NCBI GenBank assembly: GCA_030390025.1 | Contig: CM059453.1 | Span: 6,200,001 to 6,264,000, forward strand | DNA: 64,000 bases | DNA from: Squalus acanthias | Lineage: Eukaryota | Direction: 5' to 3' | Part shown: in pieces, positions 12,713-58,210 of the stretch | Numbering within the stretch: position 1 is the stretch's first letter | How the letters are laid out: every line of letters begins with the position of its first letter | Translations under genes and position numbers: made by a program | Notes under the pieces: generated by a model | Told to the model about the DNA's origin: nothing | The model's input: only the letters and a program-made list of their open reading frames with translations | The model's database searches: none

Positions 12713-13754
12713 TCGCTATACCTCTACCTATTTATTTATCATTGGCTGTCTCTCTGGTTAACTTTCGTATTGTAAGGTTTTTTCCTTGAATAAGAAAAAA
12801 GTTTTATTTTGAAAACAAACAATGCATGTTTGAGGGGAAGAAAGAGGAAAGGAGGATAGGAACGTGAGGGAAAGGATACTCGGAAAACAAGCTGAAGAGA
12901 TGTCGCTCCGATATTACCCTTATGACAAACTATTGTAATGAAGAGACAGTTACCAAAGTAACAAGTGGAATTTGACAGAGTTATGGGTAATTCTAGTCGT
13001 GTGGAAATTATAAAAACGTGAGGGAGTAGTGGGAGTTTGACGGGGTAGGCGATGGGACTGGATTGAGGAGATTGGGGAAGCATAAATGACTGGGGAACAG
13101 GTGGGAAGGGAGTAGGCGTGCCGCATTTTCCCTGAATTTGACAGGACAAATTCATCATACAGGCATTCGTGACTCCTTTCTGCACCGCATCATGCAATAC
13201 CAATGCCACTGAAAGTAAATAAGAAAGTGACAGAAATATAGAGAATCAGTCGGGGGCGAGACAAAAGTGGGAAGAGTTAATTGGTGAGAAGCACAAGAGA
13301 TCAGAGAACGAGTGAACGAGAGAGTGACAGAAGCGAACGAGGAAATAAAGGGGGCAAAATGGCAATGAGAAGTCTTCAGCGACACGTAACAGAGACCGCA
13401 CTCTCTGACCTGCCACGCGTCACGTGACTGGGAAAATCTAATAATAAAATATTTTTAAAATGCATCTGAAGCAATTACAGTCAACATTTCCCACGATAAG
13501 TTCCTGTGCCCTAATTTCGAATGGAACCTGTCTGTGTGAACTGTTCAAACTGTAATTGCACCCTCCCGCAGTTTCAACTGGGTACATGGCCAGCTATGTT
13601 GGCGGAGCCTGATTGGAGCAAATTTAAACTTTAAAAAAAAGCAGAAACTCACCTGTTGTCGTGAGTGAGCATAAAACAGATTTCCAGATCCTGTGATTTT
13701 TTTCTGTCCAGATGCACAATGGAGGCTGAAATTAAATACGTCGAAATAAATGGT

Positions 13755-14050
13755 GGGCTGGAAATTAAGGCTGGAGGTATCCCTCCAGAGGACGCTTCCG
13801 ACCCGCCAAACAATTACGAAATCACCTGTTGGCGGGCAGGCTGCGAAAAGTTGCGGTCTCGGACCTCATGGCGGAGAGCAGCGTAATGGGCCACAGATCA
13901 AAGGGGCACAGGCAGTGCGGCAGCGAACCTGGGATCACATGGGCTTGGTCCTCCAATGACAAAGGAGATTTCCAATGCAGTCACTTCCGAAGGGAATCCG
14001 CTAATGATATGCAAGGGAATCCCGAAATGTAAAACTTATACAGTTAACAG
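13755..14050 (-). mobile_element. Truncated inverted copy of the putative MITE
   Basis: ggatcacatgggcttggtcctccaat..gaagggaatccgctaatg is the reverse complement of the 14600-14870 block. Confidence 0.6.
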
Positions 14051-14094
14051 AATTGGAATTTTAATCCTAATTACCTTCATTCCACCAAAGTCAA

Positions 14095-16237: not shown

Positions 16238-16405
16238 TCACTTATGCTTCATTGCTGCATATTCGCAGGTCTCCTCATTTTGAATATATTGATCATGTTT
16301 GCGGAAGTTTGAGAAATTGACGGTCGCGTACACAATCTCGTCATTCTGAGCTGGTTTAGTCGATTGAGCGGCGCCATGACCAGCCTCTGTACACTGATGG
16401 TCCCT
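16238..16405 (-). CDS. Gene A exon 8: terminal cytoplasmic exon with ITIM IVYATV and distal motif TCEYAAM
   Basis: cctttcgttacag|RDHQCTEAGHGAAQSTKPAQNDEIVYATVNFSNFRKHDQYIQNEETCEYAAMKHK*; homologous to 2305-2472 and 39503-39644. Confidence 0.88.
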   Translation of the reverse strand, partial: RDHQCTEAGHGAAQSTKPAQNDEIVYATVNFSNFRKHDQYIQNEETCEYAAMKHK

Positions 16406-19400
16406 CTGTAACGAAAGGAATTTGTGTTAGATGTGGAGCTGCAGTGAGGAAAGAGTTAAAATGACATTACTGGCAGTTTCACTGAATAGTGTAAAAAGGC
16501 AGGGGCTAAAATGAAGGGCCACATCTATAAAGATGTGGTCAAAGATAGCTGACCTTTGGAGTGATATAAAACAATTAAATGGAGACAGGATGTCCAACAC
16601 TTCAACTGCGTGTAAGAACTTTATTACCTAGGTCCCATTCCAAGGTATCTTTTAATTAGCATTCAGAAGTTTGAGTGATTGATTGAAGAGGCAGCTTATA
16701 CATGCTTATATTAAGATTCGTAACCAATCCGTGAAGGTGCATGCGGGCCAAGATGCAATCAGGTGGCAGGAGTGAATTGAGCATGAGATGGCCATGTGTA
16801 TTGTAATGTATAAAAATGTCGTGTTTGCTGTATCAATTTGGAGAAGTCTGGCTAGGAAAGAGCAGACTGTTTCCCCACCGGTGTAATAAAGACAACGTGA
16901 CTATCGATCTAAACCCTTGTGTCGAGTGTTGGTTTAAAATACTCCACAACAGAGCTATTGCAGATATGTGGTAAGTGGAGCAGGTCAGAGGCTGGGTATT
17001 CTGCGGCGATTGTCTCACCTCCTGGCTCCCCAAGCCTTTGCGCCATCTACAAGGTACAAGTAAAGAGTGTGATGGAATATTCTCCACTTGCCTGGATGAG
17101 TGCTGCTCCAACAACACTCAAGAAGCTCGACACCATCCAGGACAAAGCAGCCCGCTTGATTGGCAACCCTACCAACACCTTAAACATTCACTCCCTCCAC
17201 CACCGCACAGTGGCTGTAATGTGTACGATCTACAAGATGCACAGCAGAAATTTACCAAGGCTTCTTCCGCTGCACCTACCAAACACGCAACGTCTTCCTG
17301 CAAGAAGGATAAGGGCAGCAGGCGCATGGGAACGCAACCACCTCCAATTTCCACATCTCACTTAGAAGTATATCGCCGATCCTTCATTGTCGGTGGGTCA
17401 TAATCCTGGAACTCCCTCCCTAACAGTACTGTGGGACTACCTTCAGCGGTTCAAGAAGGCGGCTCACCACCACAGTTTCAAGGTCATTTAGGGATGCTCA
17501 ATAAATGCTGGCCTTGCCAGCGACGCCCACATCCCATAAACGAATAAAATAAAATATGGACCTGAATGCAATGGCAGTGTGCTGTCTGCACCAGAAAAAA
17601 ACAACTATTATCCCTAATAAGCTTTATAATGGGGCTGTTCAATGAGACGAGCATTGTTTTATCTTGATGCAAGAAACAAAGACCTGTCAATTGTATATCC
17701 AGACGAGTCGATAAGACTGGGGTGTGGGACTAAATTGGAAACTTCTTTCTAAGATCCAGCACAGGTACAACATTCCGAATATTGGCCTTCTGTACTGTAA
17801 AATGAGTCTAAGGCTTGGAAATAGCATTCTTGATCCGGCCTTTGAGAAATTGAGTTACAGATTTTGAAGACAAGGAAAATACGCTGAACCTTTATACATC
17901 AGTGGTTAGCCCTCGGCTGACGGATTCTGTCCAAATCTTTGCATAACACCGTCGAAAGGTTGTCAATGAATTAAAGAGGATACAGAGCAGTTTTACTAGA
18001 ATTATAGGAGGAATGAGGGACTGAACTTAAACATATAGTCCATGGAAACTGGGATTGTGTTTCCTTGGAGAAGATAATGTTAAAGAGAGCTTAGATATTG
18101 GTGATCAAAATTCTGCAGAATTTTGACACAAAATTTAGGAGAGAATGTTTCCACTGGCAGGAGGGTCGCTAACCAGAGGACACAGATTGGAAATATTTGG
18201 GACAAGAACCAAATAGGAGGTGAGAGTTTTTTTTTAGCTCAGCGAGTTGTGATCTGGAATGCGCTGCCTGTAGGTCGGTGGCAGCAGATACAACAATTAC
18301 TTTCAAAAGGGAATTGGATATAAGCGTGAACTTGAAAAAAAAATCAAATCAAGGCTAAGGGCAAACAGCAGACTAGTGTAACTAATTGGATAGCTCTTTA
18401 AAAGAGTCAGCACAGGCACCGTGGGCTGAATGGTCTGCTTCTGGGCTGCATGATTCTACGATTATTAAGACCGAAGCACTGCTATGCAATTAATATATTT
18501 TGATTTCCAGCCTCTGTTGTAGAAAAAATGCAGCAAACAGTTAATTGGATGAATGGCGAATTAATCTGTTTTAGCTGGTGTTCATTGAGGGAGAAATGTT
18601 TGTAAGTGCACTGGGAAAACTTTCATCCATCCCCACAATAGGACCAAGTTATCGATTCCCTCCATAGCAAGAAACAAACTGGGCCTCGTTTAACATCTAA
18701 TGAAAAAGGACGGGTCTTATGGCAATGCTGCACACGTTCAGTGCTGAAATGAGGTTTCAGCCCAGATCATATGTTCAAATGCTGGAGCGAAGCTTGAAGC
18801 CACAACATTCTTAACCAAAGGTGATGAACATGGGGCCCACTTCTGCAGCAAGATGCAACTCGGAAGTTGCACATAAACCTGAGGAATGGCAACGATTATC
18901 CCCTCTGGGGTCGCTGACACATTGTGATCTTGTTGGGCATTTAACAGATCAAACCTAATTGGAAGGGCTAAGATGACGTTGGAAACACATTCTTATGTTA
19001 CGAATTTGTTTTTTGAAGGAACGCCAAGGTGAGAAATACTCCCTAATTGGATTTAATCGGTCACTACACGTAGAGCCTGTTGCTATGTTGCTCTCTTGGC
19101 GACGTCAGGCGGTTAATCCTCCCTTAATGGCCGACACGTTTCTGATACTCCAGTTTATCTGTTGGGTACGGCCCGTTATGAATCACTTGCTGGTTGAAAG
19201 CACACAAAACATCCTACAATTGGCAGCCCAGCTTGGCGTCACTTACGTCAGTGTTTACTGCCTTATGCACCGTACTGTAAATCACCAAATTATCGTGTGC
19301 TTCGGTGACACGTGCAGCTTCTCCCTGTTTCTTTCTGAACAATAAAACATGCAAATTAGGCACTTCTCATAATTAACTGGAATGTTTAGTGAAAGTACTC

Positions 19401-22400
19401 GATGCCTGCGCGATGAAGGACGTCAGTAGGTCACGAAAGACTTAAGAACATAAGAACATAAAAATAGGAGCAGGAGTTGGCCATTCGAGACCCTCAAGCC
19501 TGCTCCGCCATTCAATAAGATCATGGCTGATCATCGACCTCAACTTCACTTTCCCAAACCATCTCTGTATACCTTGACTCTCCTAGAGTCCAAAGATTTA
19601 TTTATCTCAGCCTTGAAAATACTGAAAGACTCAGCATTCACAGCCCTCTGGGGCAGGGAATTCCAAAGCTTCACAACCCTCTGAGTGAAGAAATTCCTCC
19701 TCATCTCGGTCTTAAATGGACGACCCCTTATCCTGAGACTATCACCCAGAGTTCTAGTCACTCCAGCCAGGGAGAAACAACCTCTCAGCATCTACCCTGT
19801 CAATCCCCTTCTGAACCTTTTATGTTTCAATGAGACCACCTCTCATTCTTCTAAACTCCAGAGTGTTTTGGCAAATTGTACACAATCTATCATCAGAGGA
19901 CATCACTCTCACCCCAGGAATCAATCTAATGAAACTTCGTTGCACTGTCTCGAAGGGAAGTATATCCTTCCTTAGAGAAGGAGACCAAAATCGTGCACAG
20001 TACTCCAGGTGTGTTCTTATCTGTACAATTGTAGCAAGACTTCCTTACTCTTATACTCCACCCCCCTTGCAATAAAGGCCAACATGCCATTTGCCTGCCT
20101 TATTGCTTGCTGTACCTGCATGCTAGCTTTCTGTGTTTCTTGCACGATGACAGCCAAATCTCTCTGAACACCAACATTTAAAAGTTTCTCATCATTTCTA
20201 AAATATTATGTTTTTCTATTCTTCCTACCAAAGTGAATAATCTCAAATTTCCCTACATTATACTCTATCTGCCAACTTACTGCCCACTAATTTAATCTAT
20301 CCATATCCCTTTGCAGACTCTTTATGTTCTCCTCACAGCTTACTGACCGACCTAGCTTTGTATCAACAAACTTGGATACATTACACTCGGTCCCTTCATC
20401 TAGGTCATTAATATAAATTGTAAATTGCTGAGGCCCCAACAGTGATCCTTGCGGCACCCCACTAGTTGCAGCCTGCCAACCTGAAAAAGAATCGTTCATC
20501 CCCACTCTCTGTTTTCTGTCCGTTAACCAACCCTCTATCTATGCTACGATATTAGCCTCAACCCCATGAGTCCTAATCTTGTGTTCTAACCTTTTATGTG
20601 GCACCTTGTGGCAATTACTTCTCCTGATTAGCACAGACCAGATCCGAAACCAAATCTTTTCAATTTCCAACAACCAACATTTCAAAAGGGAACATTTTAC
20701 TTTATCTATGATAGGTGTTAATGGCACGGAGCTGATTGCTCTTGGTGAAAGATGAGTGTGATAAATAACGGTCAGTGAGAGGTTTATTAATGATTTCAAC
20801 CTGGTTAAATAGCAGATGCAAGTGTTTCAATCCTTTCTATTATTACGTAGACCACTTCAACACATTGGAGTTAGAAATCAGGAATAAATCAATATTCTTC
20901 ATCAATCTTTTTGCGATCATTGATTAGTTGATATTATTAAGCATGGAATTGCCTTCTTTATATATATCATTGTACATGAAGGGTTAAAAGCTGGCACCAC
21001 TCACACGAGTGTTTATGATAATTTTGTTGCGGTTTTTGTCGAAACATTGGCTGTTGAGGGGCGGCGCCTGTCCGAGGAGCAACGTCATAGATTTCAATTG
21101 AAAGCATTATGTCTGATTGGTTGAAGTATAAATTTGATTGGCAGCAGATTGCAAACCGATCTGGTTGTCATTTGAATTCACTGGGAGCCGTTCACAATTC
21201 TGAAGCTAATTATCAGCCTGCCTTTTAAAAGAAGGGAGTCTGTCTACGGCTTTCAGTGACAACTAGTCAGACCAAATAGCTTAAGTCACTGGTAAGAATA
21301 AGATAACAAGTGCAGCATAAATAATTGCTTGTTTCATACCTTAGTACATCATTGAAAACAATTTTGAAATATAATGTTCTATTCCTGGAGCCAACCAAAC
21401 TTAACACGTAATATAAACATATGTGTCACGTTACTTTTGCTATTTGCTTGTTGTTAGGCTGTTTGCTTGACTAGCTTGATTGTTAAAACTTAAGTATCAT
21501 TCTTGTGTAGTAATGTCGTTAGAGCTTGACATGATAAGGATGCTCGTGTGAGGGTGCCCAAATAAAACTAGCAGCAGAAACAAACTTAAATGGATTCTCC
21601 GCCTATTCTTTGAGCATGCTGCAAACTTTATCCAGATTACAACGGAGATGAAAACAATCACTGGCCTATAGGGTCATCTTTAAAACACCATTCTATGAAA
21701 TTAAGAATCACACATACCTTTGTATCTTCAGCATGAGCACGACTGCAATTAGAATAACAAGCCCTGTGGCTCCTCCTCCTATTATGAGGACGATTGTCGT
21801 GGAGAATATTCCTAAAATGTTGGGGAAAAAACATTGATGTACATTACGAAGTTGGGTTTAAACAACAATCTTCGAAGCACATTTATGAGCGTGAGGAAGC
21901 AAGTTTCCTTTCTGTTCGGATCAGAAAGCTAATGGAAAGTGAGGTAAATTAGGTACTCCGCTTGTCTCAACCTCATGATCCTTGCGTAAAAGCTTTTAAT
22001 TCCTGTGTTTCATCCTGGTGTAAATTGGAATTAATAATTGAAAATTCGCTGATGTAAAAATCTCAATTGATAAATTAAGTTCACGCGACAACCCACCCTC
22101 GGAAAATCAGTGTACATTATCTAATCGGATTACATTCCCGCCAAGCTCCCCAGTTACAGCGGTAAGATTTATAATCTATCGAGATAAAGCAATTTCGCTT
22201 AGTTTATTATATATCGGCGTTACACACTCAAATGAGTTTGATCAAGATAGAGATGAGCATTTATCTACAAACTGGTTGATTGCAGTTTGCTATCATGTAT
22301 TGAGAGCAATTTGGATTTTCTAAAAAAATATCTTAATTCAGAAGAATTTGTTTTCCAAGATCACTGGCTACTGCTGGTGCTCAGATAATTCCATCTTGTC

Positions 22401-25400
22401 TTGAAAATATAAACCGAACAGGTTTCAGAAGAATGAAAGTTAAAATGGATAATGCCGACGCAACCTTTCAGTTGCTGATTGACCACTGATCGAAAGAGGT
22501 CCTTACACTAATTAGAGATAGATTCAGTATGGACCTGCTTAATGGAGCTGGTATTTGCTGAAACTAACACCGTTCAGTTAGTGACTGACTATGATGGACC
22601 AACTCCCTTATAGTATTAAATTACAGACAATTTAAACATGTACCCTTAGAGTGGAGCTGGTATTTGCTGACAGAATCACCGTGCTCGTTTGCTGCAACAC
22701 ATGAGAGCAGGTTTCCGGTTCCGGTTGGGTGAGTGAATCTCAGGGAGCTCTCCATGAGGTGGCTTTTCACCGCCCAGGAGATGATATCCACATCTGACCT
22801 GTCCCCAGTGAGCCTTCTCCCGTTGAGGCACCACGTGATGTTTCCCGGCGGATTGGCTCTGATCCGGCAGCTACAATTCGTCCAATTCTCTGAGCTGGTG
22901 CATTTCGGGCCTATTAAAATTTTGGGTTTATCTAGAAAAAATGGAAACTTCAAAAGGAAATGATCATGTAAACAGTTGCAGTTTCGAAATACAATTAAGT
23001 AATGACTTGAACTAACGTAATAGTTCTGGTTGTTATATTTTAAGAAGTAGCTTTCATATGTTGCACCAGTTGAAGGCTTATTATATTTTCACGTATAAAA
23101 GGTGAGCTCGTTAGGAACAATTTCATATTAAGTCCAATGAGTGTTCAGTCCATCAATACCTCTCCTGACAGATGTTGTGAGGGACCCTCAGACGGAGCTA
23201 GCTCAGAGTTTTGATTATGTATAATATACCCACAAACGTGTCTCACCCGTCACTGTTTTAAAAGGTCAAGTCATTTAAATTTCTTCACTTTGTTTACTAT
23301 TTTAAACATCTTCATTTGTGGTGGACTTACGTGATTCTTCAATAAACGTCCGGCTAACAGGGCGACACGTCAAAGAAACAAGTCTCGGAATGTTACACAA
23401 TTAACTCCATATTATAACAAGTAATAGGAGTTGGCTTAACACCATGTTATCACACTTTTTTTAGAGAGAATTTGTGCTCATCAAACTGCTGCAAATCAGT
23501 TCTAAGTATTGGAAAATTCTTTATTTCATACTACGAGTATTATTTGTGAACAATTAGCTATAGAATAAAGGTCACAGTAAATGTGCTCCTGTCGCAACTG
23601 CATAAATGTATGAACTGCTGCATTTATGCCACAATGTGCCATCTTCCACTCCTGTCATACTGAGCGAGATGCCAGGTTAGTTTCCATTATTGGAGCCAGA
23701 GAGGTAGTTTGCCGCTATTTCCGCGGGAAGGGGTGAAACTATCCCGAACTCATGCACATGTGCACCTTAAAGCAAGCAGGCAAGAGAAAATTGGAATTTA
23801 ATCCAGAGTTCGTGAAATGAAAGGCTACTATCTAATTGGTAACTTAATACATACTTACATTGTACTGAAATCTGTGTGGAGCAGTTGGCGGTGCATAAGG
23901 CATTTTCAGCTATGCACCAATATTCATTATCGTCCTCAGAACGAATGTTGTGGAATATCTGCTTTAGTTCACCAGTGGAAGACCTGCTGGTCTCTTCACC
24001 ATTTTTCAACCAACTTAAACTGACCTGGGGTTTTTCCCAGGCCGTGCAGTATAATAATAATGAACTTCCTTCCACAGCTACTATAGAGGAGTTAATTGTT
24101 TGGATTTCCAGTCCATCTGAAACAGGCGTTAACGCAAAACGGGATTGCTTAATAAGCATAATTAAGCTCCGAATTAATTCATTATATTGGGTATGGGGAT
24201 CAGACGGGTAATTGGAGTTGAGTTCGATATTCCGCCATGATTGCCGGAGTGGCGGAGCAGGCTCGAAGGGCCGTATGGCCTACTCCTGTTCCTAATTCTT
24301 AAGTTCGTATTAAGCCCAACGAGAGCTGAGATCTGGTGTCATAGCTTCAGATCCTAACTCGGCATGGCTTTTGTTGCTTCCATGTCTGATTGATTAACTC
24401 AGAACTTGACTGGAAGTTCATAGAATAAAGATTAACTATCACGTTAAAAAATCTGTTGGAGGCACCATCATTGATTCATGGATATGAATGTCTCAAATGT
24501 AATACGACTGATGCGAATTAGAGGAGAGCCATCCCGAACCATTGATTATCGAATTGAGCTCCCCTGGTACAGAGGCTGAGCGTTTCATGATGCATTCTTT
24601 GATGCAGTTCTAATCACTAATAAATTACTTGTGGTAAAAGTGCAAATGTTTTTCCCCTTGGCATAAGTCTGTTTACTTTAGACCGGACACTTAGTGCAAT
24701 TTGTCACAGAGTGCAACTCGGAACAGAGTGTTAAGGTGCGAGTTTGGTTAGTGAGGGAGTTCGGGGAGGGAGGTGTTCCTTTCTTTTTCTATCTTTGTCA
24801 GCGTTCAGGAGAGCAGGAGCTAAAAAGCTGCACAAGAGCGGACAGAAAACCAGCGGGAGTTCGGCTCTGTGACACCCCCCAACCGGATCTGCAGAAAAAT
24901 AAAAGTTCAGTTCAAACAGAGTGCTGCGAATTGGGAATTGGTTCCTACTTTACACAAAGGAAAGAGTCCGAGAGCAGGAGCAGTCAAACAACAACAACTG
25001 CGAAAACGCTAAAGTGACTTCATAAACAGGGAAGGTGCTGATTGGTATCGAGGACCTGGTGAGTATTTGTACAGTCCAGTCGTTCAGGTAAAGTAAGATC
25101 TCTAGTTTAGAGTAAGTAGTATTTAAAGGGAAGTAAGGTCCCTAGTGTATTTAATATTCGTTCAAATAAAGTAAGTAAATGGCGTAAATTAAGGGTAGGG
25201 CGTGGCAGGGCAGGTCGGCAGCGTGAAGTGCTCCTGCTCTGCTCTGTGGGAAGTCAGGGACACTTTAGGTGTCCAAGGCGAACACATGTGCAGGAAGTGT
25301 CTCCAGCTGCAGCTACTGGAAATCCGCTTTTCGGAACTGGAGCTGCGGCTGGAGTCACTGCGGAGCACCCGCGAAACTGAGATCTTCCTGGATAGCACGT

Positions 25401-33843: not shown

Positions 33844-33959
33844 TGCTGGAAAAGCAGCAGATTTCACTCTTAAAATGAAGAAGTGTTTCACAATTAAGAC
33901 CATTCAGGTTTTTGCATTCTTCTTCCCAGTCACATCTTGGATTTTTTTGCTAATCAACA

Positions 33960-39502: not shown

Positions 39503-39596
39503 TTTAATTGGTGCCTAATCGCAGGTCTTCTTATTTGGGCTATATGCTTCATGATTGCGGAAGTGTGAGACATTGACAGTCACGTACACAATTTCT

Positions 39597-39644
39597 TCAT
39601 TCTGAGCTGGTTGAGTCGATTGCGGGGCTCACGTGATCGTCTCT
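39597..39644 (-). CDS. Gene B exon 8: frameshifted terminal exon (RDDHVSPAIDSTSSE*)
   Basis: cttccgttacag acceptor is homologous to A. It has 22 nt versus 39 nt in A before CAATCGACT, so the IVYVTV remnant is out of frame. Confidence 0.72.
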   Translation of the reverse strand, partial: RDDHVSPAIDSTSSE

Positions 39645-45600: not shown

Positions 45601-48600
45601 TGGAGAAAAATAAAAGTGCGGTTTAAACAGAGTGCTGTGAGTTGGGAATTGGTTCTTACTTTACACCAAGGAAAGAGTCTGACAGCGGCAGCAGTCAAAC
45701 AACAACAACTGCGAAACCACAAAGTGACGTCATAACCAGGGAAGGAGCTGATTGGTAACTACGAGCTGGTGAGTATTTCTACAGTCCAGTCGTTAAGGTA
45801 AAGTAAGATCTCTAGTTTCGAGTAAGTAGTGTTTAAAGGGAAGTAAGGTCCCTAGTGTATTTAATATTCGTTAAAGTAAAGGAAGTAAATGGAGTAAATT
45901 ACGGGTTGGACATGGCAGGGCAGGTCGGCAGCGTGGAGTGCTCCTCCTGTGCTATGTGGGAGTCAGGGACACTTTCGGTGTCCAGTGCGAACAGGTGTGC
46001 AGGAAGTGTCTCCAGCCGCAGCTACACGAAATCTGCGTTTCGGAGCTGGAGCTTCGGCTGGAGTCACTGTGGAGCATCCGCGAAACTGAGATCTTCGTGG
46101 ATAGCACGTGCAACGAGGTGGCATCACCGCAAGTAAAGAGTGCCCACGCAGAGAGGTAATGGGTGACCGCCAGACAGAGTAAAAGAACTAGGAGCATAGT
46201 GCAAGCATCTCCCTCTCCAACAGATTTTCCATTTTGGATACTGATGGGGGAGTTGTTTGCTCAGGGGAATGCAACAAGAGCCAAGTCCGTGGCACTAGTC
46301 GTGGCTCAGCTGCACAGGAGGGGAGGAAAAAGAGTGGGAGAACAATAGTGATAGGGGATTCTATCGTACGTGGAACAGATAGACGTATCTGTGGCCGCAG
46401 ACGTGACACCAGGGTCGTATGTTGCCTCCCTGGTGCCAGGGTCAAGGATGTCACTGAACGGCTGAAGGCCTTCTGAAGGTCCGAGGTCGTGGTTCACATT
46501 GGTACCAACGACATGGGTAGAAAGAGGGATGAGTTCCTGCAACAAGAATTTAGGCAGCTAGGTAGCAGATTAAAAAGCAGGACCTCAAAGGTTGTAATCT
46601 CTGGATTACTCACGGTGCCACGTGCTAGTGAGTAAGGAATATGAGGGTAGAGCAGATGAATGCGTTGCAAAAGAGTTGGTGCAGTAGGGAGGGTTTTAGT
46701 TTCCTGCATCACTGGGTCTGCTACTGTGGAAGGTGGGACCTGTACAACTCGGACGGGTTGCACCTGAACAGGAACGGGTCCAACATCCTTGCGGGGAGAT
46801 TTGCTAGTACTATTGCAGGGGGGATTGGGTGGTTAAACTGACTTGGCAGGGGGATGGGATACGGAGTGGAGCTATATAGGGGGTGATGCACAGCCAAACA
46901 TACAGGAAAAAAACAAGTCAGCCTAGAAGGCAGAGCAAATATATAACGCCACAAGGGACTACGGCAAGGCTGGATGGCATTTATTTTAATGCATGGAGTC
47001 TTGCGAGATGGCAGATGAATTGAAGACATTGAGGAACACCTAGGAGTATGATATTGTTGCTATCACAGAGACATGGTTGAGGCAGGGGCAAGACTAGCAG
47101 CTCAGTATTCCGAGGTGTATACTCTCCAGGCGAGAGAGAGGGAGGTGCAAAAGAGGAGGGGGTGCGGCAATATTTATCATGGAGACAATTAATGCTGTAA
47201 ACTGGGATGATATCTTAGCAGGTTCCTCTAATGAGGCTTATGAGCAGAACTTAGAAACAAAAAGGGGGCAAGCAATTTGCTGGGAGTGTACTATAGGCAC
47301 CCATACAGTCAGGGGGAGAAGAGGAACAGCAATGTAGGGAAATCCCTGAGAAGTTTAGAAATAATAGGATAATAATAGTAGGACATTGCAACTTCCCCAG
47401 TATTAACTGGGATAGTCAGAGTGTGAAAGGCTTAGTGGGTGCAGAATTCCTAAAGTGAATCCAGGAGATCTTTTTGAGCCAGCATGTAGAACGTCCGACA
47501 AGAGACTGGGCGGTACTGGACCTAATTCTAGCAAATGGTAGAAGTGTCAGTAGGAGAGCATTTTGGTGACAGTGAGCATAATTCGGTGAGATTGAAGGTA
47601 GTTATGGAAAAGAATAAAGATGGACCTGAAATTAAGGTTCTAATTGGGGGAAGGCCGATTTTAATATGATAAGGCAGGATCTGGCCAAAGTGGACTGGGA
47701 TCAGCAACTTGAAGGAAAATCCACATCAGAGCAGTGGGAGTCTTTCAGAAAGGAAATAGAGAGAGTACAACACCAACATGTTCCCGTCAAGGTCAAGGGT
47801 GGGACCAACAAGCCGAGGGAACCCTGGATGACAAGGAGATATACAAGAATGGATTATGTAAAAGAGGGAGGCTTTTGGCAGACACAAAGGACCAAAAACA
47901 GTGGAAGCGCCAGAGGAGTATATAATGCGCAGGGGGTGCTTAAAAAAATAAATTAGGAGAGCGAAGAGGGGGCATGAAAAAACACTGGTGGGCAAAATAA
48001 AGGAAAATCCCAAGGTGTTTTATATGTATATTAAGGGCAAGAAAATAACGAGGGAAAGAGTAGGGCACATTAGGGACCAAAGTGGCAATCAGAGTGTAGA
48101 GCCGGAAGATGTAGGTGAGGTTTTAAATAAATATTTTGCAGCTGTGTTTAAGATGGACAAGGGTGATGCAGGTATAGAAATCAGGCAGGGGGATATACTT
48201 GAACAAATTAGTATTGAGAGGGAGGAGCTACTACCGGTTTTAGCGGGATTAAAAGTGGATAGCTCCCCAGGCCCTGACGGGATGTATCCCAGGGTGCTGT
48301 GTGAGGCAAGGGAGGAGATTGCAGGGACACTGACACACATTTTCAGAACCTCTCTGGCCACAGGGGAGGTGCCAGAGGACTGGAGAACAGCTAACGTAGT
48401 ACCATTATTCAAGAAGGCTAGTATGGATGAACCAGGGAATTACAGGCCAGTGAGCCTAACATCGGTGAGAGGGAAATGATTGGAAAACATTCTGAGGGAC
48501 AGAATTAGTCTCCACTTGAAGAGGAAAGGATTAATCAAGGACAATCAGCATGGCTTTGTCAAGGGGAGATCATGTTTAACCAATTTGATTGAATTTTTCG

Positions 48601-51600
48601 AGGGGGTGACTAGGTGTGTGGATGAGGGTAGTGCAGTTGCTGTAGTCTACATAGACTTCAGTAAGGATTTTGACAAAGTCCCGCATGGGAGACTTGTCAA
48701 GAAGATATGAGCCCATGGGATCCTGGGCAATTTGGCACATTGGATCCAAAATTGGCTTAGTGGCAGGAGGCAGATGGTGATGGTCGAAGGTTGTTTTTGT
48801 GACTGGTCGCCTGTGTCCAGTGGTGTACCGCAGGGATCGGTGCTGGGTCCTTTGCTGTTTGTAGTGTACATTAATGATTTTCATATGAATGTAGGAGGTA
48901 TGATCAGTAAGTTCGCAGATGACACGAAAATTGGTGGAGTGCTAAATAGCGAGGAGGGAAGCCTCAGGCTACAGGACGATATAGAAGGGTTGGTTAGATG
49001 AGCACAACAGTGGCAAAAGGAATTTAACCCTGAAAAGTGTGGGGTGATGCATTTAGAAACATAGAAACATAGAAGATAGGAGCAGGAGAAGGCCATTCAG
49101 CCCCTCGAGCCTGCTACGCCATTCAGCGAGATCATTGCTGATCATCCAAATTCAGTACCCTGTCCCTGCCTTCTCTCCATATCCCTTGATCCCTTTAGCT
49201 TTAAGAAATATATCTAACTCCTTCTTGAATATATTAATGAAATGGCATCTACTGCCTTCTGTTGTAGAGAATTCCATAGGTTCACCACACTCTGGGTGAA
49301 GAAATTCCTCTTCATCTCACTCCTAAATGGCTTACCCCTAATCCTGAGACTATGACCGCTGGTTCTGGACTCCAGAGCCATCGTAACATCCTTCCTGCAT
49401 CTAGTCTGTCTAGTCCTGTTAGGATTTTATAAGTTTCAATGAGATCCCCTCTCATTCTTTGAAACTCCAGCGAGTATAAGCCCAATCGACCCAATCTATC
49501 CTCAAACAACATTCCTGCCATCCCAGGTATCAGCCTGGTGAATATTTGGTGCACTCCCTCCATGGCAAGAATAACCTTCCACTGATAAGGCGACCAAAAC
49601 TGCACACAATACTTAAGATGTGGTCTCACCAAGGTCCTGTACAACTGCAGCAAGACATCCATTTTAGGAGGACTAATAAGGCAGGGGAATATACAGTGAG
49701 TGGTAAGACCCTAGGAAGGACAGAGGATCAGAGGGACGTTGGTGTGCATGCATATATATATATCCCTGAAGGCAGCAAGAAAGGTAGATAAGGTGTTTAA
49801 AAAGCCAGATGGAATACTTGCCTTCATTAGCCGAGGCATAGAATATAACAGCAGGGAGGTTGTGATGGAGCTATACAAAACGCTATTTATGCCACAACTG
49901 GAATACTGTGTGAAGTTCTACTCGCCACACTAGAGGAAGGATGTGATTGCATTGGAGAGGGTGCAGAGGAGATTCATCAGGATGTTACCTGGGCTGGAGC
50001 GCTTCAGCTATGAAGAGAGACTGGACAGGCTGGGGTTGTTTTCCTTAGAGCATAGAAGGCTGAGTGGTGACCTGATTGAGGTGCACAAAATTATGAGGGA
50101 CATAGATAGGGTCGATAGAAAGGAACTTTTCCCCTTAGTAGAGGGGTCAATAACCAGGGGGCATAGTCTCAAGGTAAGGGGCAGGAGCTTTAGAGCGGAT
50201 TTGAGGAAAAACTGTTTCTCCCAAAGGATGGTTGGAATCTGGAACTCGCTGCCTGAAAGGATGGTAGAAGCAGGAACCATCACAACATTCAAGAAGCATT
50301 TAGATGAGCACTTGAAACGCCATCGCATACAAGGCTATGGACCAAGTGCTGGAAAATTGGATTAGAATAGACAGGGCTTGATGGCCGGCGTGGACACGAT
50401 AGACCGGAGGGCCTCTTTATGTGCTGTATAACTCTATGACTTACATTTAATCTCCAAGGTAAAATTTTGTGCTGATGGAATTGTGATACCATCAATTAGA
50501 ATTGTGCATCCTAGAATTTTCCCGTCATTAGCAGATGATGGTGTGAAGATGATCACGGATGAAACTGTCCGAGAACCTGAACTTTCATTGCTAATTTCTG
50601 CTCCATCTTGAGTATCCATTGCGGGAGGAAGGGACACATTGTAATTAATCCACTTCAGTTTCAGGTTGCCATCCGGGCAGTTGTGGGTGACAGAACAGGT
50701 CAATCGTGCAGTTTGTCCAGCGGTCAATTCCCCATAACCTGATATATCTGGCTTTTCTATAATAACGGGAGAAAACCAGCTTGTTAGGTGCATTTCAATG
50801 TTAAAACGGGCGATTGATGGCTTACAACTAAATCTGAGAAAGAAGTAACAAGAAAATCATTTTTAATTTTTTTTCTCTGCTAGGTGTTGCAAGTGTGTTC
50901 TCCATTCTCAATTACTCCTCGCAGATGTAATGTAGTTTTATGCCTCATCGGGTAACATGTAGCCCCACTTAATTAAACAATAGTCGTTATATCTCCTAAA
51001 TTATTTGTATCATGTATATTCTCCAGTGAACCAATTTTACAGGCTGGGCTTAGAATCAACGTTCACTCTTCAAATGTCACGAATATTTCATCCTCTCTTA
51101 TGATTCCTTCTGCACCAGTACCTGCCAATGTGATGGTGACTAATGCTGACCCAGAGAGATCTCGATTCTGTTGCCAAGAAACTTCAATGGAGAACGACAA
51201 TGCTCAAGAAAGGGACAGACCAGACAAAGGGCAGATAACACCGCCTTGTCTGGGAGCAACAAGGCAGGTCCCTCGCTTGTAAATCTCATGAAGGCTTCAG
51301 CAGAACCAGCATTTGTTGAAGTGGTATTAGAATGAACAAATAAATTATAACTTGACATGATTTTCACGTTACTGAAATATCTACTTTTTATTTAAGATCT
51401 AATTAAAAGCGTGGTAAATGAGCGCTGGATAGGGAAACGCACGAACAAAGACTGCATTAATTCGGCGCCGTTTAACTCCTGGCGACATCAAAAGACGCTT
51501 CACCAAAAAGTAACTTGAAATGTAATCAGCCAGCCATTGTCGACGGTAAACACAGGAGATTATTGGAGTATATATTAAGATATTTGGAATTAAGGATAAT

Positions 51601-54503
51601 GTAGAAATTGCAAAATAAACTGTTTAGAAGGGACGATGCAGTCAGTCGCCGTTAAGTGCAGTTGCTCAGAATGGTTGGATCTGAGTATGGTGTCCCATGG
51701 GGCTATGCTGTGGGATTGCTTTTACTCACTGTGTGCATCAATAATTTGGAGAAGGCGCTAAAGAGACTGATGTCCAAATTTCCCGTTACGAGTTAATTAG
51801 ATTCCAACAAAATGAAAATTGTGCAGTGTGTACAATGGGAGGCGCATCCACTATCGCCAGTTTGACAAACATGACAAAGTTGCTAGTACAACTCCCAGGA
51901 AATAACTAGAGAACTAAAGGGAGTTACAAATGGATACGAGAGATATTGTAGAATGGGGACATAAGAGGCAGATATAATTCAAGGTCAAAAAATATGAGGT
52001 GGTAGATGTTAATTTGAACCGTAGGAAGCTGGGAGATGTGGAAGAGCAGAGGAATTTTGGGTCAGGTTCATAAGACAGTAAAAGCAGCACCTCCAGTGGA
52101 AAAGTGTATGAAAATGTTTCTCGAGCTCTGAGTTTCATGGCAGGAGATCTGTAATATAAATTCGAGATTAGTGGCGATTCTAAAGAGAACAGTAGTTTGT
52201 TCGCATTTTGAGTAAGAATACGGATATTGGACGCCAGCCTATAGGAAGGCTACAGGGTTGATTCGCATAGTTTCTGTCTGGTATGATGAAGTACAATTAG
52301 CAAGAAACTATTTAAAAATTGAGGCAGATTTTATTAGGCTAAAACAGATTTTGGGATGATTTGACAGAAGTGCTGAAACTTTTTAAGCAACAGGACAGAG
52401 GAGAAAGAAGCAGACTGAAGTCGAATTTGAAATGGCCGCCCTGGTTAAAACTGTCATTCCAGACAAGTCACCCATTCTAGCAACCAGCCGAGTTCCATTA
52501 CCTTTCATGTCATTGTAACTAATGAGCTGCTGGTGAATGTATTGTAAGTACGACCAAAAATGTCAGCTTTAGGTTCAGTCAACACTTAGTAAATCTATCC
52601 TCATGTGGACATTTCAGAATAGTCTCGACAGGTGTTGGAAGGGAATTGCAATAAAGGGATATGGGAACTGAGCAGGCACATGCGATTCGGAGTGTTGATC
52701 ATGGGAAGGACAAACAGCAACACGGGCTGGCTGGACCGAACGGCCTGATTTACTGCTGTAATTTCTATATACCTCTGTGCTTAAGATATGAATGCATGCG
52801 TCTCTTATCAGTACCCCTGCCCGCTATGTTTCCACGAACCTTAATGTTCGGCCAGATAAACCAAAAAAATTGAAATCTTTAAAAATAGGATGTGAAGGCC
52901 CTGGGGAGGGGGCAGAGCAGATTTACCAGAATGGTTCCGGCAGATGGGGGATCTTAGCTAATAGGATATGTTGGAGAATCTGGATTTGTTTTCATTTGAG
53001 CAAAGGAGGTTGAGGGGTGATTTGATAGAGGTGTACAATATTATGACGGGTTTGGATAGGCTAGACGGGGAAAGGCTGTTCCCACTAGTTGATGGTACAA
53101 GGACCAGGAAACAGAGATAAAGGTTTTGGGCAAGAGATACAGGGGGAATGTGATTAAAAACTTTTTAACGCAGTGAGTGGTGAGGACCTGGAACTCGCTG
53201 CCGACGGAAGTGGTGGAAGCGGAGACACTCAATGTTTTCAAGGGGAGACTGGATAGGCACTTGAGGGAAATAAACTTGATAGGGCTACGGGGATAGAGTG
53301 GGGAAATGGGACTGACTGGATTGCTCTAAAAAGACCCGGCACGCACTCGATGTGCCGAATAACCTCCCTCTGTACCGTTATAAATCTATGAATTGATGTT
53401 GATTCATACTAAAACAATGGAATAAAAATGTACAAGTACAATAAATGGCAAACTCACCTAAAACAGAAAGAAAGACTTCAGAACGGAAAATGCGATGTGT
53501 AATAGAATTTCTGCCCGAGGTGATGGCTGTGATGAACTGATATGCACCCTCATCACTCTTTCGGATATCCTTTATCAGGAGGGAGCATTGTCTTTTTTCA
53601 AGGTTGCCCTTAAACTCAGCTCTGCCACTATAATTATAATGCTGCCTGAATGGAACATTCGAATCATAGATAATGGTGTCATTGGGTTTTCCAGGACCAG
53701 GTTCCCTCTTTATCCACCTCCCGTTCAGGTTGGCGATGTAGCCCATGTTATCAAATTTACACGGGATCTCTGCACAAGAACCCAACACCGCCGACACAAC
53801 TTTTGGCATCACCACAGAACATTGAACACTACAAAAGGCTGAGAAAATAAAATATTAGACTGCCTTTAAGAATCTATTCAAAATGTATTGCAAATTCTTA
53901 AGCATCCATAAAATTGCTTGTTGATTGACTAAAAGCCTCCCAGCACAATAGCAATTTAATTATCAGTTAAACACTATTCAAAATCAAGTAAAATACTGAC
54001 TAAATACCAATCGCAAAAATTATTGACATGTTCATTGGAATATATATTTGATAGTAGTTTTATCAACAAATAATATGCATATTTAATACTCATCTGAAAA
54101 CCGAACACATATCCACTAAGAAGCAAGTGAATGCCCTATAAAATCTTCATTAAATATAAATTAAAATTAATATTAATTAAAATGAACATTACACTTCTAT
54201 TGACTCTCCCTTGAATTACTCAATCAATATGAATTAGCTTGCTATTAAATGTGCATTACAATTCTCATTAAATATAACTTGAAAAGCCCTATATTTAAAT
54301 ATTGTTTGAATAGGCAATCACATGCAATAACACACTTATGGAATACCAACTCACCATTGATACAATCAATTAAAAAAATTATATTAGGTCCTGTCCTTTT
54401 CTTTTCCCAGCAGATATTAATCAGCTGTTTTAGAAATTAGTAAAAACGTAAGAAATGTACCTTCGTTCAATACCATGAGAGAAACCAACACGCAAGTCCT
54501 CAT
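39597..54503 (-). CDS. Gene B: Siglec-like (V-set + 3 C2-type Ig) receptor with TM arginine and no intact ITIM (putative activating type), 500 aa; complement join 54461-54503, 53458-53838, 50445-50756, 44562-44819, 43347-43634, 42445-42538, 40105-40183, 39597-39644
   Basis: All exons GT-AG with the same phases as A and an open frame of 1503 nt. TM TILLIIRGGATGIVLLIAVVLLL; tail RKKSSETACVPKTASGALVYTGDLNVERDDHVSPAIDSTSSE*. Confidence 0.82.
40105..40183 (-). CDS. Gene B exon 7: cytoplasmic exon, ITIM degraded to LVYTGD
   Basis: attttttag|(R)KKSSETACVPKTASGALVYTGDLNVE|gtaagt; 9 nt shorter than A. Confidence 0.82.
40520..41330 (-). mobile_element. CR1 fragment specific to gene B intron 6
   Basis: Minus-strand IYINDL..SNFADGT, RPQLEYCVQFWAP, LEQRRLTGDLI. 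Confidence 0.9.
42445..42538 (-). CDS. Gene B exon 6: transmembrane with Arg (AGA at 42506-42504)
   Basis: attttttag|GIFSRTILLIIRGGATGIVLLIAVVLLLKIQ(R)|gtatga. Confidence 0.92.
43347..43634 (-). CDS. Gene B exon 5: membrane-proximal Ig domain
   Basis: ttttag|YKHTILAGPTCISSENWTNCNCRIRANP..SCVAANEHG..LHSK|gtatgt. Confidence 0.92.
44562..44819 (-). CDS. Gene B exon 4: Ig domain 3
   Basis: gtttcag|YGLEIPTVNSS..LYCTAWGKP..W..DDGEYWCIAENALG..ISVQ|gtaagt. Confidence 0.92.
45410..50440 (+). mobile_element. Paralogous near full-length CR1 LINE in gene B intron 3, with nested minus-strand CR1 fragment at 49055-49659
   Basis: ORF1 ATG at 45912, IGDSIVRG, HIGTND, DGLHLN; ORF2 [17 protein letters not shown]; same nested insertion and CATTT duplication as in A. 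Confidence 0.95.
50445..50756 (-). CDS. Gene B exon 3: C2-set Ig domain 2
   Basis: EKPDISGYGELTAGQTARLTCSVTHNCP..GKILGC..LEIK|gtaagt. Confidence 0.93.
52880..53395 (+). mobile_element. CR1 3' fragment in gene B intron 2
   Basis: Paralog of 32220-32735. Confidence 0.88.
53458..53838 (-). CDS. Gene B exon 2: Siglec-type V-set domain
   Basis: AFCSVQCSVVMPKVVSAVLGSCAEIPCKF..QCSLLIKDIRKSDEGAYQF..LSVL|gtgagt. Confidence 0.94.
54461..54503 (-). CDS. Gene B exon 1: signal peptide
   Basis: gccATG MRTCVLVSLMVLNE G|gtacat. Confidence 0.85.
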
Positions 54504-57449
54504 GGCTGGAAAAGCAGCCGATTTCACTCTCAAAATGAAGAAGCTGTTTCACAATTAAGACCATTCAGGTTTTTGCATTCCTCTTTCCAGTCACATATTG
54601 GATTTCTTTGCTAATCAGCATCAGACTTTCGGGGAAGTCCGATTCGGTTCCTACCGATGTGTCGGAACAGTGCTCACTCCCTCAGCTCCGTTGCTGAGGT
54701 AGGCAGCCAACACATCATATACATGGGCTGCTTGTGACCGACTGTTACTGAATATGATGTTATGGTATTTCTAACAGTTGCTGAAGAATACTTAATACAG
54801 AAACAACATCTCACTCTCTCACGCACAAACACACAAAGGTACTGTTATTTATGATATAGATAATTGGAGTCTGCGACAGATTGGCACCGCCCACGCTTGA
54901 AGGCGACTCTGACTCACATTTCACACACATTCAGCTTTCTGGCAGCTAATACGAGCTGAATGTTGCAGAGGTGTGACTTCAGTTAGTTAGCTTGCTGCAG
55001 TCTGTAGCCGTGTGGTTTCGTCACCTTCATTAATAAGCGCTCCAACATGCATCTGTGACGTCACAGATAGGAGCTGTTTGACAGTAAACCGTTTGACTCT
55101 GTGGTAAACAGACTTGTTTCCAATTGAATTAACTCTCTATGTTAATGGACACTCTCTCTAAATTATCGAAATTAACTAAAAATTCATCTCTATTTGCAGC
55201 AGTACTTTTTTTTGCTGGAAATTTTGACATGAGGTCTGGGACGTGTGAAACGAACGAGAGCTTTCTGACATAAATGCAAACACCGCTAGAAAATACATAG
55301 CTTAAAGTGATTGAAACAACTGGTCCTGCAAACTGATCAGTGAGGTACACACCTGGAGGCGTGTAACAGGCGGCCGGTCCGATATCACATTTTCTACACT
55401 CCTGATCATACGTTACATGAAACCCCCATAATTTCCCAGCGGCTATTATCACGATTAGTTAGGTTTAGCCTTGGAATATCACAAGCTTTAGTTCAAATCG
55501 CGACACAAATAAAATGGCCCGGACTTTCCAAGCCCTATGACTAGATACCCACAGCATACGCGACCGTAAGTGCCCCGCAAGTTCTGGGTTTCCACATGCA
55601 ATGACCATGGGCTAAAAGACGGAACTTGCGATCTGTCAAAATTGTCCTTGTCAGATCGTACCCATCCGCAGGAAATGGACATTCGCTGGCACAGAGTAGG
55701 GTTATTTGCCCAACTGCTGCCCAGCGAATTCCCACGGAACCCATACGCCTAGTAAAAAAAAATGTGTAACACTTTCTTTAACAAACATAAGGGCTTAAAT
55801 ATATATTAAAATAAATGTTTTTCAGTTGTTTAACTGCAGAAAAATCTTTAAAGTTAGCTTAGGTTATTTTTGCCCCTTGAAAATGTTTACATTTATTTTT
55901 CCAAAAATACATTTCTGTTTCAAATATTTAATTAAATTGTATTTCAACTGATTTTGACCATGAGATGATGTATTTTTATTTCAGTATGTTTTTTAAGTGA
56001 TTTCTAAGATGCTTAAGGGGATTCTGTACGTCAATGGAATTCTTTAAGCATAATGGGAAAGCCGCATTTTGATAGGTTGGGCTAACCCACCTGATCCCAG
56101 GGAGGCTTATGAACCGCATGCGCTCCCGGGATAGGTGGGCTATACGCAGGCGTACGCCCGCAGGCCCAGGGCAGCAAGAGTCGGATGGTGCTGAGGTACC
56201 AGGTAGGTGCAGAGTTTAAAATAACAACAGAAAATGCTGGAAGCACTCAACAGGCCAGGCAGCATCCGTGGAGAGAGAAACAGAGTTAACGGTTCCGGTC
56301 AGGGACCTTTCATCAGAACTGGAAGAGGCGAGAGATGTAACAGATTTTAAGCAGGTGCAGAGGCAGAGAAAGGGGGAGGGAAGATGAGGAAGGAACTAAA
56401 TGTATATTATGTGCTAAGGTAGGAGGAAGGAAAGATTAAATGTTGCTAATGGGGATGGCAGAATCAAAAACAGCCTGAAAAATGGTGGCAGCGCTTATAG
56501 CCTGAAACTGTGAAACTAATGTTGAGTCCAGAAGACTGTAAAGTGCCTAATCGAATGATGAGGTGCTGGTCGTCGAGCTTACGTTGAGCTTCATTGTGAG
56601 ATGCCGAGGACAGCGAGATCAGAGATTACTTGCTTTCGCCCTTGAGAAGACTCCAACCACAATATCCAGCCCAATAAGTCAGTACAAACATCAGGCAGTT
56701 TATTGAGTTAGTCAACTGTATCACCACTACGAGTGCCCACCTCTGCCCTTCGTCGTTTTTTTCTTGCAGAGGACACCAGGACCGCTCAGTTGGTTGCAAT
56801 TTGAAGTCAATGCTGTCAGTCACCAGGTGTGTTAGGTTTTCTGTGTCCACTTCACCATTAATAACTGAATGTCTCTTTTAAATTTGGCTGGCATTCTTCC
56901 TTAAGAAATCGCCAATGTTGTGAACATTAAAGAACATTGATGATAAAGATAGGCGGACAATGAGCCACGTTGAATTAGTGTAGTTTGTGCAGTTCTCATT
57001 GGTCTTTGGATTCTTCTCCTTGACACAAAGGACATAATGACATTTTGCTCTGATTACTGAGAGATATGAACATCAGTCTGTGTAATAAAATGACAACCAG
57101 TGAGATGGGTAGCAAAGGTCAATAAAACTAAGCAGCTTGTGTAAAAGACTAAAGTTGATCAGGAAATTGTTTACCAAAATATAATACAGCGAGAATCTTC
57201 CCACTATATGGACACTGACCGTGCAACATATATACCAGAGGGAATCTTCCAACAATGTCTGCAGTTCCCTTACCTCACATAGATTAGAATGAATGTTCCC
57301 AATATTTCTACACTCTCTAATACACAGATACCAGAGGGACCCTTCCCAGGATATACACAGTGTCCCTACCATGAATAGAGTAGAATTAAACTTCCAATTA
57401 TTTGTACACTTCCCCTACAACACAGAGACAAGATGAAATACTTCCAGTA

Positions 57450-58210
57450 CATAAGAACATAAGAATTAAGAGCAGCAGTCGGCCATACGGCCCCTTGAGC
57501 CTGCTCTGTCATTGAATAAGATCGTGGCTGATCTTTGACCTCAACTCCATTTTCCAACCTGATCCCCATATCACTTGATTACCCTCCAGTTTAAAATTCT
57601 ATCGATCTCAGCCTTGAATATATTCAACGATTCAGCATCCACAGCCCTCTGGGGTGGAGAATTCCAAAGATTCACAGCCATCTGAGTTAAGAAATGTCTC
57701 CGTATCTCAGTCTTAAATGGCCGACCCCTTATCCTGAGACTGTGCCCCCTAGTTCTAGACTCCCCAGTCAGGGGAAACAATCTCTCAACATCTTCCCTGA
57801 CAATCCCCCTCAGAACCTTATATGTTTCAATTAGATCACCTCTCATTCTTCTAAACTCCAGAAATATAGGCTCAATCCACTCAATCTCTCCACAGAGGAC
57901 ATCCCTCTCATCCCAGGAATCAATTTAATGAATCTTCTCTGCACTGCCTCAAATGTAAGTATATCCTTCCTCAGATAGGGAGACCAAAACCGTGCACAAT
58001 ACTCCAGATGTGGTCTCACCTAATCCCTGTACAATTGTAGCAAGACTTCTTTACCATTGTAATCTAAGCCCTTGCAATAAAGGCCAACATGCCATTTGCC
58101 TTCCTAATTGCTTGCTGTACCTGCATGTTAACTCTCTGATTTTCCTGTATGAGGACACCTAAATGTCTCTGAAAACCAACATTTATATATTTCTCAATAT
58201 TTATTAATAT
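57450..58210 (-). mobile_element. CR1 3' fragment
   Basis: Minus-strand MRGDLIETYK..RRHFLTQMAVNLWNS; (ttcttatg)n tail. Confidence 0.92.

Follow-up and report, generated by a model that had tools for sequence, protein, structure and literature searches.

The question raised by this locus is why two neighbouring receptor genes of the cartilaginous fish Squalus acanthias, here called A and B, resemble each other closely at their 5' ends and poorly at their 3' ends. Both lie in a stretch of 64,000 nucleotides (hereafter the window; contig CM059453.1, positions 6,200,001 to 6,264,000, or G000:C30:6200001-6264000, where C30 is the contig bearing the window), and matches to it were sought across the 3.7 Gb genome. 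The predicted products are Siglec-like, A with ITIMs (immunoreceptor tyrosine-based inhibitory motifs) and B without them. A preliminary description of the window had explained the pattern by gene conversion of the ligand-binding end. The comparison with further members of the gene cluster points to another origin: B is very probably a fusion of a front of A's seven-member subfamily, running from the promoter over signal, V and D2 through the third immunoglobulin (Ig) domain (D3), with a separate 3' module that is found cluster-wide.

Both genes are on the minus strand and have eight exons each, with canonical AG/GT splice sites and open frames (Table 1). The ITIM-less B is located upstream of A, and the gene starts are separated by 20.7 kb. 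Comparison of the window with itself revealed a direct repeat (21670-36477 vs 42397-57132, 91.3% identity) and a second direct-repeat stretch (36583-37165 vs 57131-57713, 95.5% identity), with only scattered blocks of 73-83% identity beneath the long repeat. The opposition of an inhibitory to an ITIM-less tail resembles that in SIGLEC5/14. The tail of A carries two motifs, VIYSTV and IVYATV, which fit the ITIM consensus, and a third, distal Tyr motif. The short tail of B has none, its sole Tyr not fitting the same consensus, and in the A/B alignment the distal Tyr codon of its last exon is now a stop. The best hydrophobic 19-mers of the transmembrane (TM) segment of B contain Arg 439.

Gene B and its 3' module

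The V exon had 124 matches in the genome, mostly at 6.0-8.0 Mb of C30. Besides A and B, five of them were 87-91% identical (P1-P5), and the remainder reached at most 68%. Altogether, 37 genes were compared: A, B, P1-P5 and 30 more that were fetched. Of 40 TM-region matches, the 4 on small contigs were left out; the V search contributed 1 further gene, and V subfamilies more remote than these, also present among the 124 V-exon matches, fall outside this set. All 37 genes have one common exon plan; by their tails, 11 are ITIM-less (B type), 25 are of the ITIM type and 1 is of another type. A long interspersed nuclear element (LINE) of ~5 kb in intron 3 is confined to A, B and P1-P5 among these genes, the D2-D3 distance being ~5.7 kb in the same seven and <2 kb in the 29 other genes having D3.

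When B was painted in 400-nt windows against the 36 other genes, the nearest relatives were A and P1-P5 down to 44514 and the ITIM-less genes g6416, g6552 and g7315 from 44513 to 37166 (3-7%). From intron 4 to the last exon, B is 4.98 ± 0.6% from g6416 (C30:6.416 Mb) and 5.41% from g6552 (6.552 Mb). Its divergence from g6416 drops along the gene from 28.9% in V, 8.3% in D2 and 8.1% in D3 to 4.2% in D4 and 1.1% in TM. The TM region of B has 10 other copies with 94-98% identity, nine of which stand behind V exons that are 52-56% like that of A in protein.

The TM Arg, the lack of an in-frame ITIM and a LINE at the old stop with the same insertion point were found in 11/11 ITIM-less genes; the last-exon frameshift is common to 10 of the 11, and P5 has a further deletion there. 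In trees of the 37 genes, this class forms one branch side for TM (support 100/100), for the first tail exon (100/100; since the group had been defined by this exon beforehand, this one tree is not independent of the label) and for the second tail exon (100/99). On the V, D2 and D4 trees it needs 7, 7 and 5 changes, respectively, and the approximately unbiased (AU) test rejects a single ITIM-less clade with p of 3e-54, 8e-28 and 0.009. A tail clade scattered in this way over the ectodomain trees means that ectodomains and tails recombined repeatedly. In P5, now broken, a second V front of the A subfamily has been joined to an ITIM-less tail; switch point and sub-lineage differ from those of B. 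A younger pair is formed by the ITIM gene g7464 (L139, C30:7.464 Mb) and the ITIM-less g6679 (L091, 6.680 Mb) and g7500 (L087, 7.501 Mb), whose V exons are 0.5-0.8% apart; it represents a far younger exchange than A/B and is a better candidate for recent conversion. All three genes have stops in D3.

The cluster consists of a repeated unit: an ITIM-less gene, a ~40-kb spacer and a P-type gene. From g6290 through D3 of B, the locus tracks one such block, with the P4/P5 blocks nearest. Near 44400 the block map jumps from block position ~65 kb to ~5 kb, where a block of the P1/P2 type has its ITIM-less gene. A second jump, at 37165, leads ~40 kb forward, to ~52 kb, and lands in the LINE that lies upstream of the P-type gene, here A. 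The LINE cut at the latter junction continues in B and P1-P4, and ~40 kb of spacer present in the sister blocks is missing at 37160..37175.

The shared 5' tract and the order of events

The divergence between A and B was not uniform: the best split gave a doubled log-likelihood difference (2dLL) of 186 vs a maximum of 17.4 in 200 permutations, so that the uniform divergence which would have refuted the preliminary description does not occur. It was 5.7% upstream, 5.3% in intron 1, 5.0% in intron 2 and 5.9% in the 5' part of intron 3, and further on it rose to 11.1, 11.5 and 14.8%; 3' of the TM exon just 11 separate blocks align, with 17-27% divergence. A single step at A 27288 fitted better than a logistic slope (log-likelihood -4027 vs -4043), by which a smooth gradient is rejected. 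This main step sits within the intron-3 LINE and is thus removed from the V exon by 5.5 kb in the downstream direction; a further step near 22422 was borderline (2dLL 15.3, within the permutation range). The 5'-to-3' identity gradient of the preliminary description thus gives way to a stepped profile (5.4%, 11.6%, 17-27%) that is not centred on the ligand-binding exon. Its hand counts were exact (V 16/381 with 12 non-synonymous and 4 synonymous changes, D2 11/312, TM 12/94, and 12 and 16 residue differences in D3 and D4), and so was its statement that the tail exons are far more diverged. The same applies to the transposable elements, which it had called common to both genes upstream and in introns 2-3 and copy-specific in introns 6-7 and at the 3' end: between A 21670-37165 and B 42397-57713 a single indel exceeds 14 nt, an upstream piece of 107 nt present in A only, and past the TM exon the few alignable blocks confirm the pattern.

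The V exon itself was ordinary. It differs by 4.2% vs 5.5% in non-exon DNA (Fisher p 0.30), and its 12:4 ratio of non-synonymous to synonymous changes matches the neutral expectation from site counts (binomial p 0.78), so that a comparison of A with B gives no sign of positive selection on this exon. The three 5' exons pooled differ by 3.8% vs 5.5% in non-exon DNA (p 0.05). The longest identical run in the tract is 116 nt, where 113 are expected for an even 5.4%. GENECONV-type scans (1000 permutations; P3 left out as a near-copy of P2) yielded significant fragments in 9/15 pairs at the laxer setting, A-B not among them (Bonferroni p for A-B of 1 and 0.32 in the scans). Conversion that is recent or targeted at V was rejected on these grounds; a flat tract, an ordinary V exon and the lack of a long identical run argue for one old, long tract rather than for repeated polishing of the binding exon.

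In an alignment of A, B and P1-P5, the 5' tract differs by 5.4% between A and B and by 6.1-8.2% between either of them and the P genes, and the V exon of B is nearer to P1 (2.9%) than to A (4.2%). The trees changed along the genes. From the promoter to intron 1, B grouped with P4 (90/92, with A+B unrejected at p 0.11); between the V exon and mid-intron 3, A and B were sisters (100/100), and sites shared by A and B only were concentrated at A 32400-28400 (47/74); the remainder of intron 3 gave no resolved tree; and from D4 to TM, B joined P5 and A joined P4, a tree holding A and B together being rejected (p 3.5e-6). What stands of the conversion proposed earlier is that the 5' parts share a recent ancestry which the 3' parts lack; that conversion was directed at the ligand-binding end, or continues there, is not supported. 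Levels of 11% and 20%+ arise because the 3' half of B comes from another gene lineage and that of A is nearest to another paralog, and they are not older A/B conversions. In the middle-level region (21670..27287) A and B need not be sisters.

As for the events, an unequal crossover or a template switch in the homology of D3 and intron 4 would have made B, and one long non-reciprocal copy, either conversion-like or the duplication itself, would have made the fronts of A and B sisters. The front copy and the fusion would be of about the same time, their divergences (5.4% vs 5.0 ± 0.6%) being indistinguishable, and exchanges with P1, P4 and others, later or earlier, would have added the patchwork. 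Two histories fit: a fusion-deletion between tandem blocks followed by a long copy of the B front over that of A, or a template-switch duplication of a P4-like gene that captured the tail, after which the remainder of intron 3 was replaced. In both of them the 5' likeness would go back to a single event about as old as the fusion. The 9.9-kb direct repeats and the gene order could also yield fusion-deletion alleles.

Signalling, ligand and rival explanations

With its A-type ectodomain, an Arg in the upper TM and an ITIM-less tail, and with adaptor exons present in the genome, B is likely to be an activating or decoy counterpart of A. Two PF11628 TM exons were found in the genome, presumably one zeta-like and one FcR-gamma-like. 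B would act as partner of the ITIM-bearing A by pairing with an FcR-gamma-type adaptor. That B is both a fusion gene and such a partner of A appears rather probable, and for a signalling role as such the chances are about even or slightly lower. A complex prediction for the TM of B with two FcR-gamma-like TM chains scored 0.09 against a mark of 0.34, and the one run compared that is presumed to be RNA (its type being guessed) gave repeat pieces only; neither outcome speaks for or against such a role. As in other paired receptors, the genes are linked and their ectodomains similar (11 residue differences in V and 7 in D2), one having ITIMs and the other a basic TM residue and no ITIM.

In both proteins, C2/I-type Ig domains come after an N-terminal V-set domain, in a type I membrane layout. 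Pfam assigned the V exon to V-set and Ig_CD22, and its best hit among solved structures was sialoadhesin (E 1.4e-10), followed by MAG and Siglec-8. Structure matches of D2 were Siglec-8 and MAG, and those of D4 were contactins and, weakly, MAG. Siglecs are characterised by two N-terminal plus E-strand Cys in V, no F-strand Cys and an extra Cys in domain 2; here the V Cys align with those of sialoadhesin and the D2 Cys with those of Siglec-8/MAG. The F-strand Arg is essential for sialic-acid binding in Siglecs, and its position is occupied by Ile in both A and B. Sialic-acid binding is therefore doubtful, the genes are filed as Siglec-like rather than as Siglecs, and sialic acid, in its customary mode of binding, is probably not the ligand. 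The Arg was present in 3/33 readable V exons, the other 4/37 being out of frame. These three (L089, L093 and L095; g6861, g7673 and g7315) belong to ITIM-less genes and have a V exon two codons longer; with 11-12% divergence from them, none of the 25 ITIM genes sampled is a close partner.

Several observations weigh against B as a fusion and activating partner. In 10/11 ITIM-less genes an Ig exon is interrupted by a stop or a frameshift, B alone being clean, and the TM exon of this class has no purifying signal (ratio of non-synonymous to synonymous changes per site, pN/pS, 1.24, from very few changes). An Arg at or beside the TM position also occurs in 4/25 ITIM-class genes, so a single base change suffices to produce it and it does not mark the class. 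The 11 residues that differ between the V domains leave a shared ligand specificity not assured. As regards the fusion itself, g6290, the gene now upstream of B, is 9.1% and not 5% from the 3' module of B; having another flank type as well, it does not fit as the sole donor via a duplication crossover. A closer, unsampled donor is possible, 37 cluster genes having been compared. Moreover, a single genome does not allow the events to be put in sequence or given a direction, and no scenario works without at least one further exchange. The four ITIM-class genes with a TM Arg (L109-L114, L127; g6828, g196, g7284, g239) each have an exon, splice-site or tail lesion.

The lesions and the TM ratio would also suit a neutral patchwork, produced by the same recombination, in which the ITIM-less class consists of decaying pseudogene tails and B is open only through its recent intact front, without signalling and at most as a passive decoy. 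The three different stops at which the class tails end, the neutral pattern of the A/B V-exon changes and the 50-kb-spaced duplicated blocks recombining throughout the cluster fit as well. However, the lesions concentrate in D3, ITIM genes included, which fits a dispensable exon better than dead genes. Seven of the 10 lesioned ITIM-less genes are broken in D3 alone, 11/25 ITIM genes have a lesion in some exon or splice site, and different lesions among the 37 genes number at least 9 in D3, about 5 in V, 1 in D2 and 3 in D4 (the D3 counts lack the D3 of g196 and g2693). D3 has 258 nt and can be skipped in frame, and one of the 37 genes lacks it entirely. It is perhaps dispensable, and many apparent pseudogenes may make three-domain receptors. 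In addition, the D4 pN/pS of 0.57 in the class is like that of 0.54 in the ITIM genes (pairwise values that share ancestry), the TM Arg and the TM splice sites are kept in 11/11, and B is still open after ~5% divergence. We consider the neutral patchwork rather unlikely.

Repeated conversion between A and B under selection on the ligand-binding end, in the manner of SIGLEC11/16, would agree with the sister relation of the fronts, the clustered A+B-only sites and the lower divergence of the 5' exons, and one long conversion tract could be taken to end at the 27288 step. Nevertheless, the divergence is flat at 5% without a young sub-tract, while the primate genes are 97-99% identical over ~2 kb (PMC5701461). 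Neither the fragment scan nor the promoter-to-intron-1 tree favours the pair, and the lower identity levels are accounted for by other donors. As a process, repeated conversion is largely refuted, and we consider it improbable as the explanation of the locus. Still less credible is an assembly artefact, in which A and B or the joints would be mis-strung haplotypes or paralogs. The cluster is highly repetitive, and no contig of 4 public DNA runs bridges the 37165 junction (the contigs are short, and the hole proves nothing). But the tail classes of A and B differ and are ~20% apart, the two genes differ by substitutions, indels being few, neither frame is interrupted, and synonymous changes are enriched in D3 (11/25). 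Furthermore, a 509-nt contig of A's own upstream region, with 1 difference, was present in runs X1 and X3 (one sample), and P5 repeats the arrangement with its own switch point.

Known paired receptors and features of the window

Paired receptors that arose via ectodomain exchange are known from mammals and frogs, and PIR-A is also among the TM-Arg receptors coupling to FcR-gamma/zeta. The whale shark genome paper reportedly has a single mention of Siglec, and no description of a Siglec-like cluster or pair in cartilaginous fish was found in the open-licence PMC and bioRxiv literature.

Siglec-14 and Siglec-16 are activating/decoy counterparts (PMC4042635, PMC5701461, PMC13358205). SIGLEC5/SIGLEC14 resembles A/B in the tandem order with the ITIM-less gene upstream, in 5' ends that are similar over the first two Ig domains and in the fusion-prone layout (PMC4042635). 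It differs by ongoing conversion, as opposed to one old, flat 9.9-kb tract in A/B, and by a known fusion that deletes the activating gene, whereas here the fusion would have created the ITIM-less one; the adaptor of Siglec-14 is DAP12 (PMC4042635). Unlike in that pair, the same tail serves several ectodomain lineages in the cluster studied here. SIGLEC11/SIGLEC16 has a stepped identity, high at the 5' and lower at the 3' end, as A/B does with its sister 5' tract, and non-functional alleles of the activating partner are common, as lesions are in the ITIM-less class (PMC5701461). There, 97-99% identity and species-specific clustering across primates contrast with 94.6% over 9.9 kb in a single genome here (PMC5701461), where the run-length comparison and the fragment scan revealed no young A-B tract. 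The mammalian paired receptors of CEACAM1 share with this cluster their making and upkeep by duplication, conversion, exchange of signalling exons, and also inverted sub-blocks; their similarity peaks on the N-domain exon and hardly extends into introns, while that of A/B is flat over introns, and the activating CEACAM tail has its own ITAM-like motif, while the tail of B is motif-less with only the TM Arg (PMC2832619).

In CD89, NKp30 and NKp46, an Arg near the TM top contacts FcR-gamma/zeta dimers (PMC13107469). Like B, they bear this Arg in the helix's upper half and end in a short ITIM-less tail; unlike B, CD89 carries polar residues a turn higher than the Arg (QNLIR, PMC13107469). Their ectodomains are unrelated to that of B, whose coupling is putative. 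Sialoadhesin, MAG and the CD33-related Siglecs are like A/B in V/D2 structure matches and in the Siglec-type Cys pattern, and unlike them in keeping the sialic-acid Arg.

The logic is that of SIGLEC5/14, SIGLEC11/16 and the CEACAM pairs, and not a new kind of system. It differs in the route (fusion onto a shared tail, with many ectodomain lineages and one old long tract), in the lineage and in the lacking lectin Arg. A tentative wider reading, to which we give somewhat less than an even chance, is a cartilaginous-fish paired-receptor factory, in which one FcR-gamma-type activating tail (frameshift plus TM Arg) would have been grafted repeatedly onto inhibitory ectodomains, B being a complete working graft beside its inhibitory template. 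If such a factory, with its roughly hundred V exons mostly without the sialic-acid Arg, is real, its paired Siglec-like receptors arose separately from those of primates. If B signals, the same counter-measure to pathogen mimicry arose separately near the base of jawed vertebrates, and the cluster, with its many natural ectodomain/tail swaps of differing ages, lends itself to tests. A caution also follows: what looked like a conversion gradient between two genes became fusion and block mosaicism once other paralogs were added.

Table 1. Parts of genes A and B and other features of the window (positions count from the first nucleotide of the window)
Feature	Position	Strand	Remarks
Gene A, inhibitory type	16238..33843	-	543 aa; open frame, AG/GT sites
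A signal exon	33843-33801	-	
A V exon	33178-32798	-	
A D2 exon	30095-29784	-	
A D3 exon	24116-23859	-	
A D4 exon	22931-22644	-	
A TM exon	21811-21718	-	uncharged TM
A tail-1 exon	19334-19247	-	
A tail-2 exon	16405-16238	-	
Gene B, ITIM-less type	39597..54503	-	500 aa; open frame, canonical splice sites
B signal exon	54503-54461	-	
B V exon	53838-53458	-	
B D2 exon	50756-50445	-	
B D3 exon	44819-44562	-	
B D4 exon	43634-43347	-	
B TM exon	42538-42445	-	
B tail-1 exon	40183-40105	-	
B tail-2 exon	39644 to stop at 39597	-	
Arg codon of B TM (residue 439)	42504..42506	-	upper half of TM helix; Gly in A
B last exon, frameshift	39497..39644	-	net 17-nt loss, stop ahead of old ITIM (alignment)
LINE fragment at old stop codon of B	38949..39496	.	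inserted immediately ahead of the codon; 7-nt target-site duplication
Shared 5' tract, A copy	27288..37165	-	5.4% from B (524/9747 sites)
Shared 5' tract, B copy	47947..57713	-	
Middle level of divergence	21670..27287	-	11.6% A/B (642/5530 sites); B side 42397-47946
Part of A closest to P4	17166..23165	-	2.5-5.6%; P4 is an inverted copy 1.3 Mb off
Probable fusion point of B	44210..44655	-	diagnostic sites change from A/P subfamily to g6416/g6552 lineage at D3 end/intron 4 start
3' module of B	37166..44500	-	intron 4, D4, TM, tail, flank
Non-homologous junction	37160..37175	.	B 3' flank to truncated LINE upstream of A; 2-5 nt microhomology
LINE of intron 3, ~5 kb	24200..29700	+	limits approximate

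Besides these features, the D3 of A (23859-24116) has two extra Cys, residues 320 and 324, which are lacking in B and the other genes. A third, broken paralog occupies 617-2471 on the plus strand; it consists of a D2-like exon, a D3-like remnant with a stop and a remnant of the last exon in which the distal Tyr is replaced by a stop; ahead of this last remnant no D4 or TM exon was seen. Tandem repeats are located at 3089-3572 (33 nt), 10051-10623 (69 nt) and 36676-36885 (96 nt), the last one upstream of A and with a shorter counterpart upstream of B. The low transition/transversion ratio between A and B (0.54-0.62) was considered as a sign of sequencing error specific to them, which was ruled out, the ratio being 0.47-0.71 in all young cluster pairs (A/B, P1-P5, L081-L140), in introns and exons alike. 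It may belong to a genome-wide mutation spectrum; two older LINE pairs in the window had ratios of 0.93 and 0.96.

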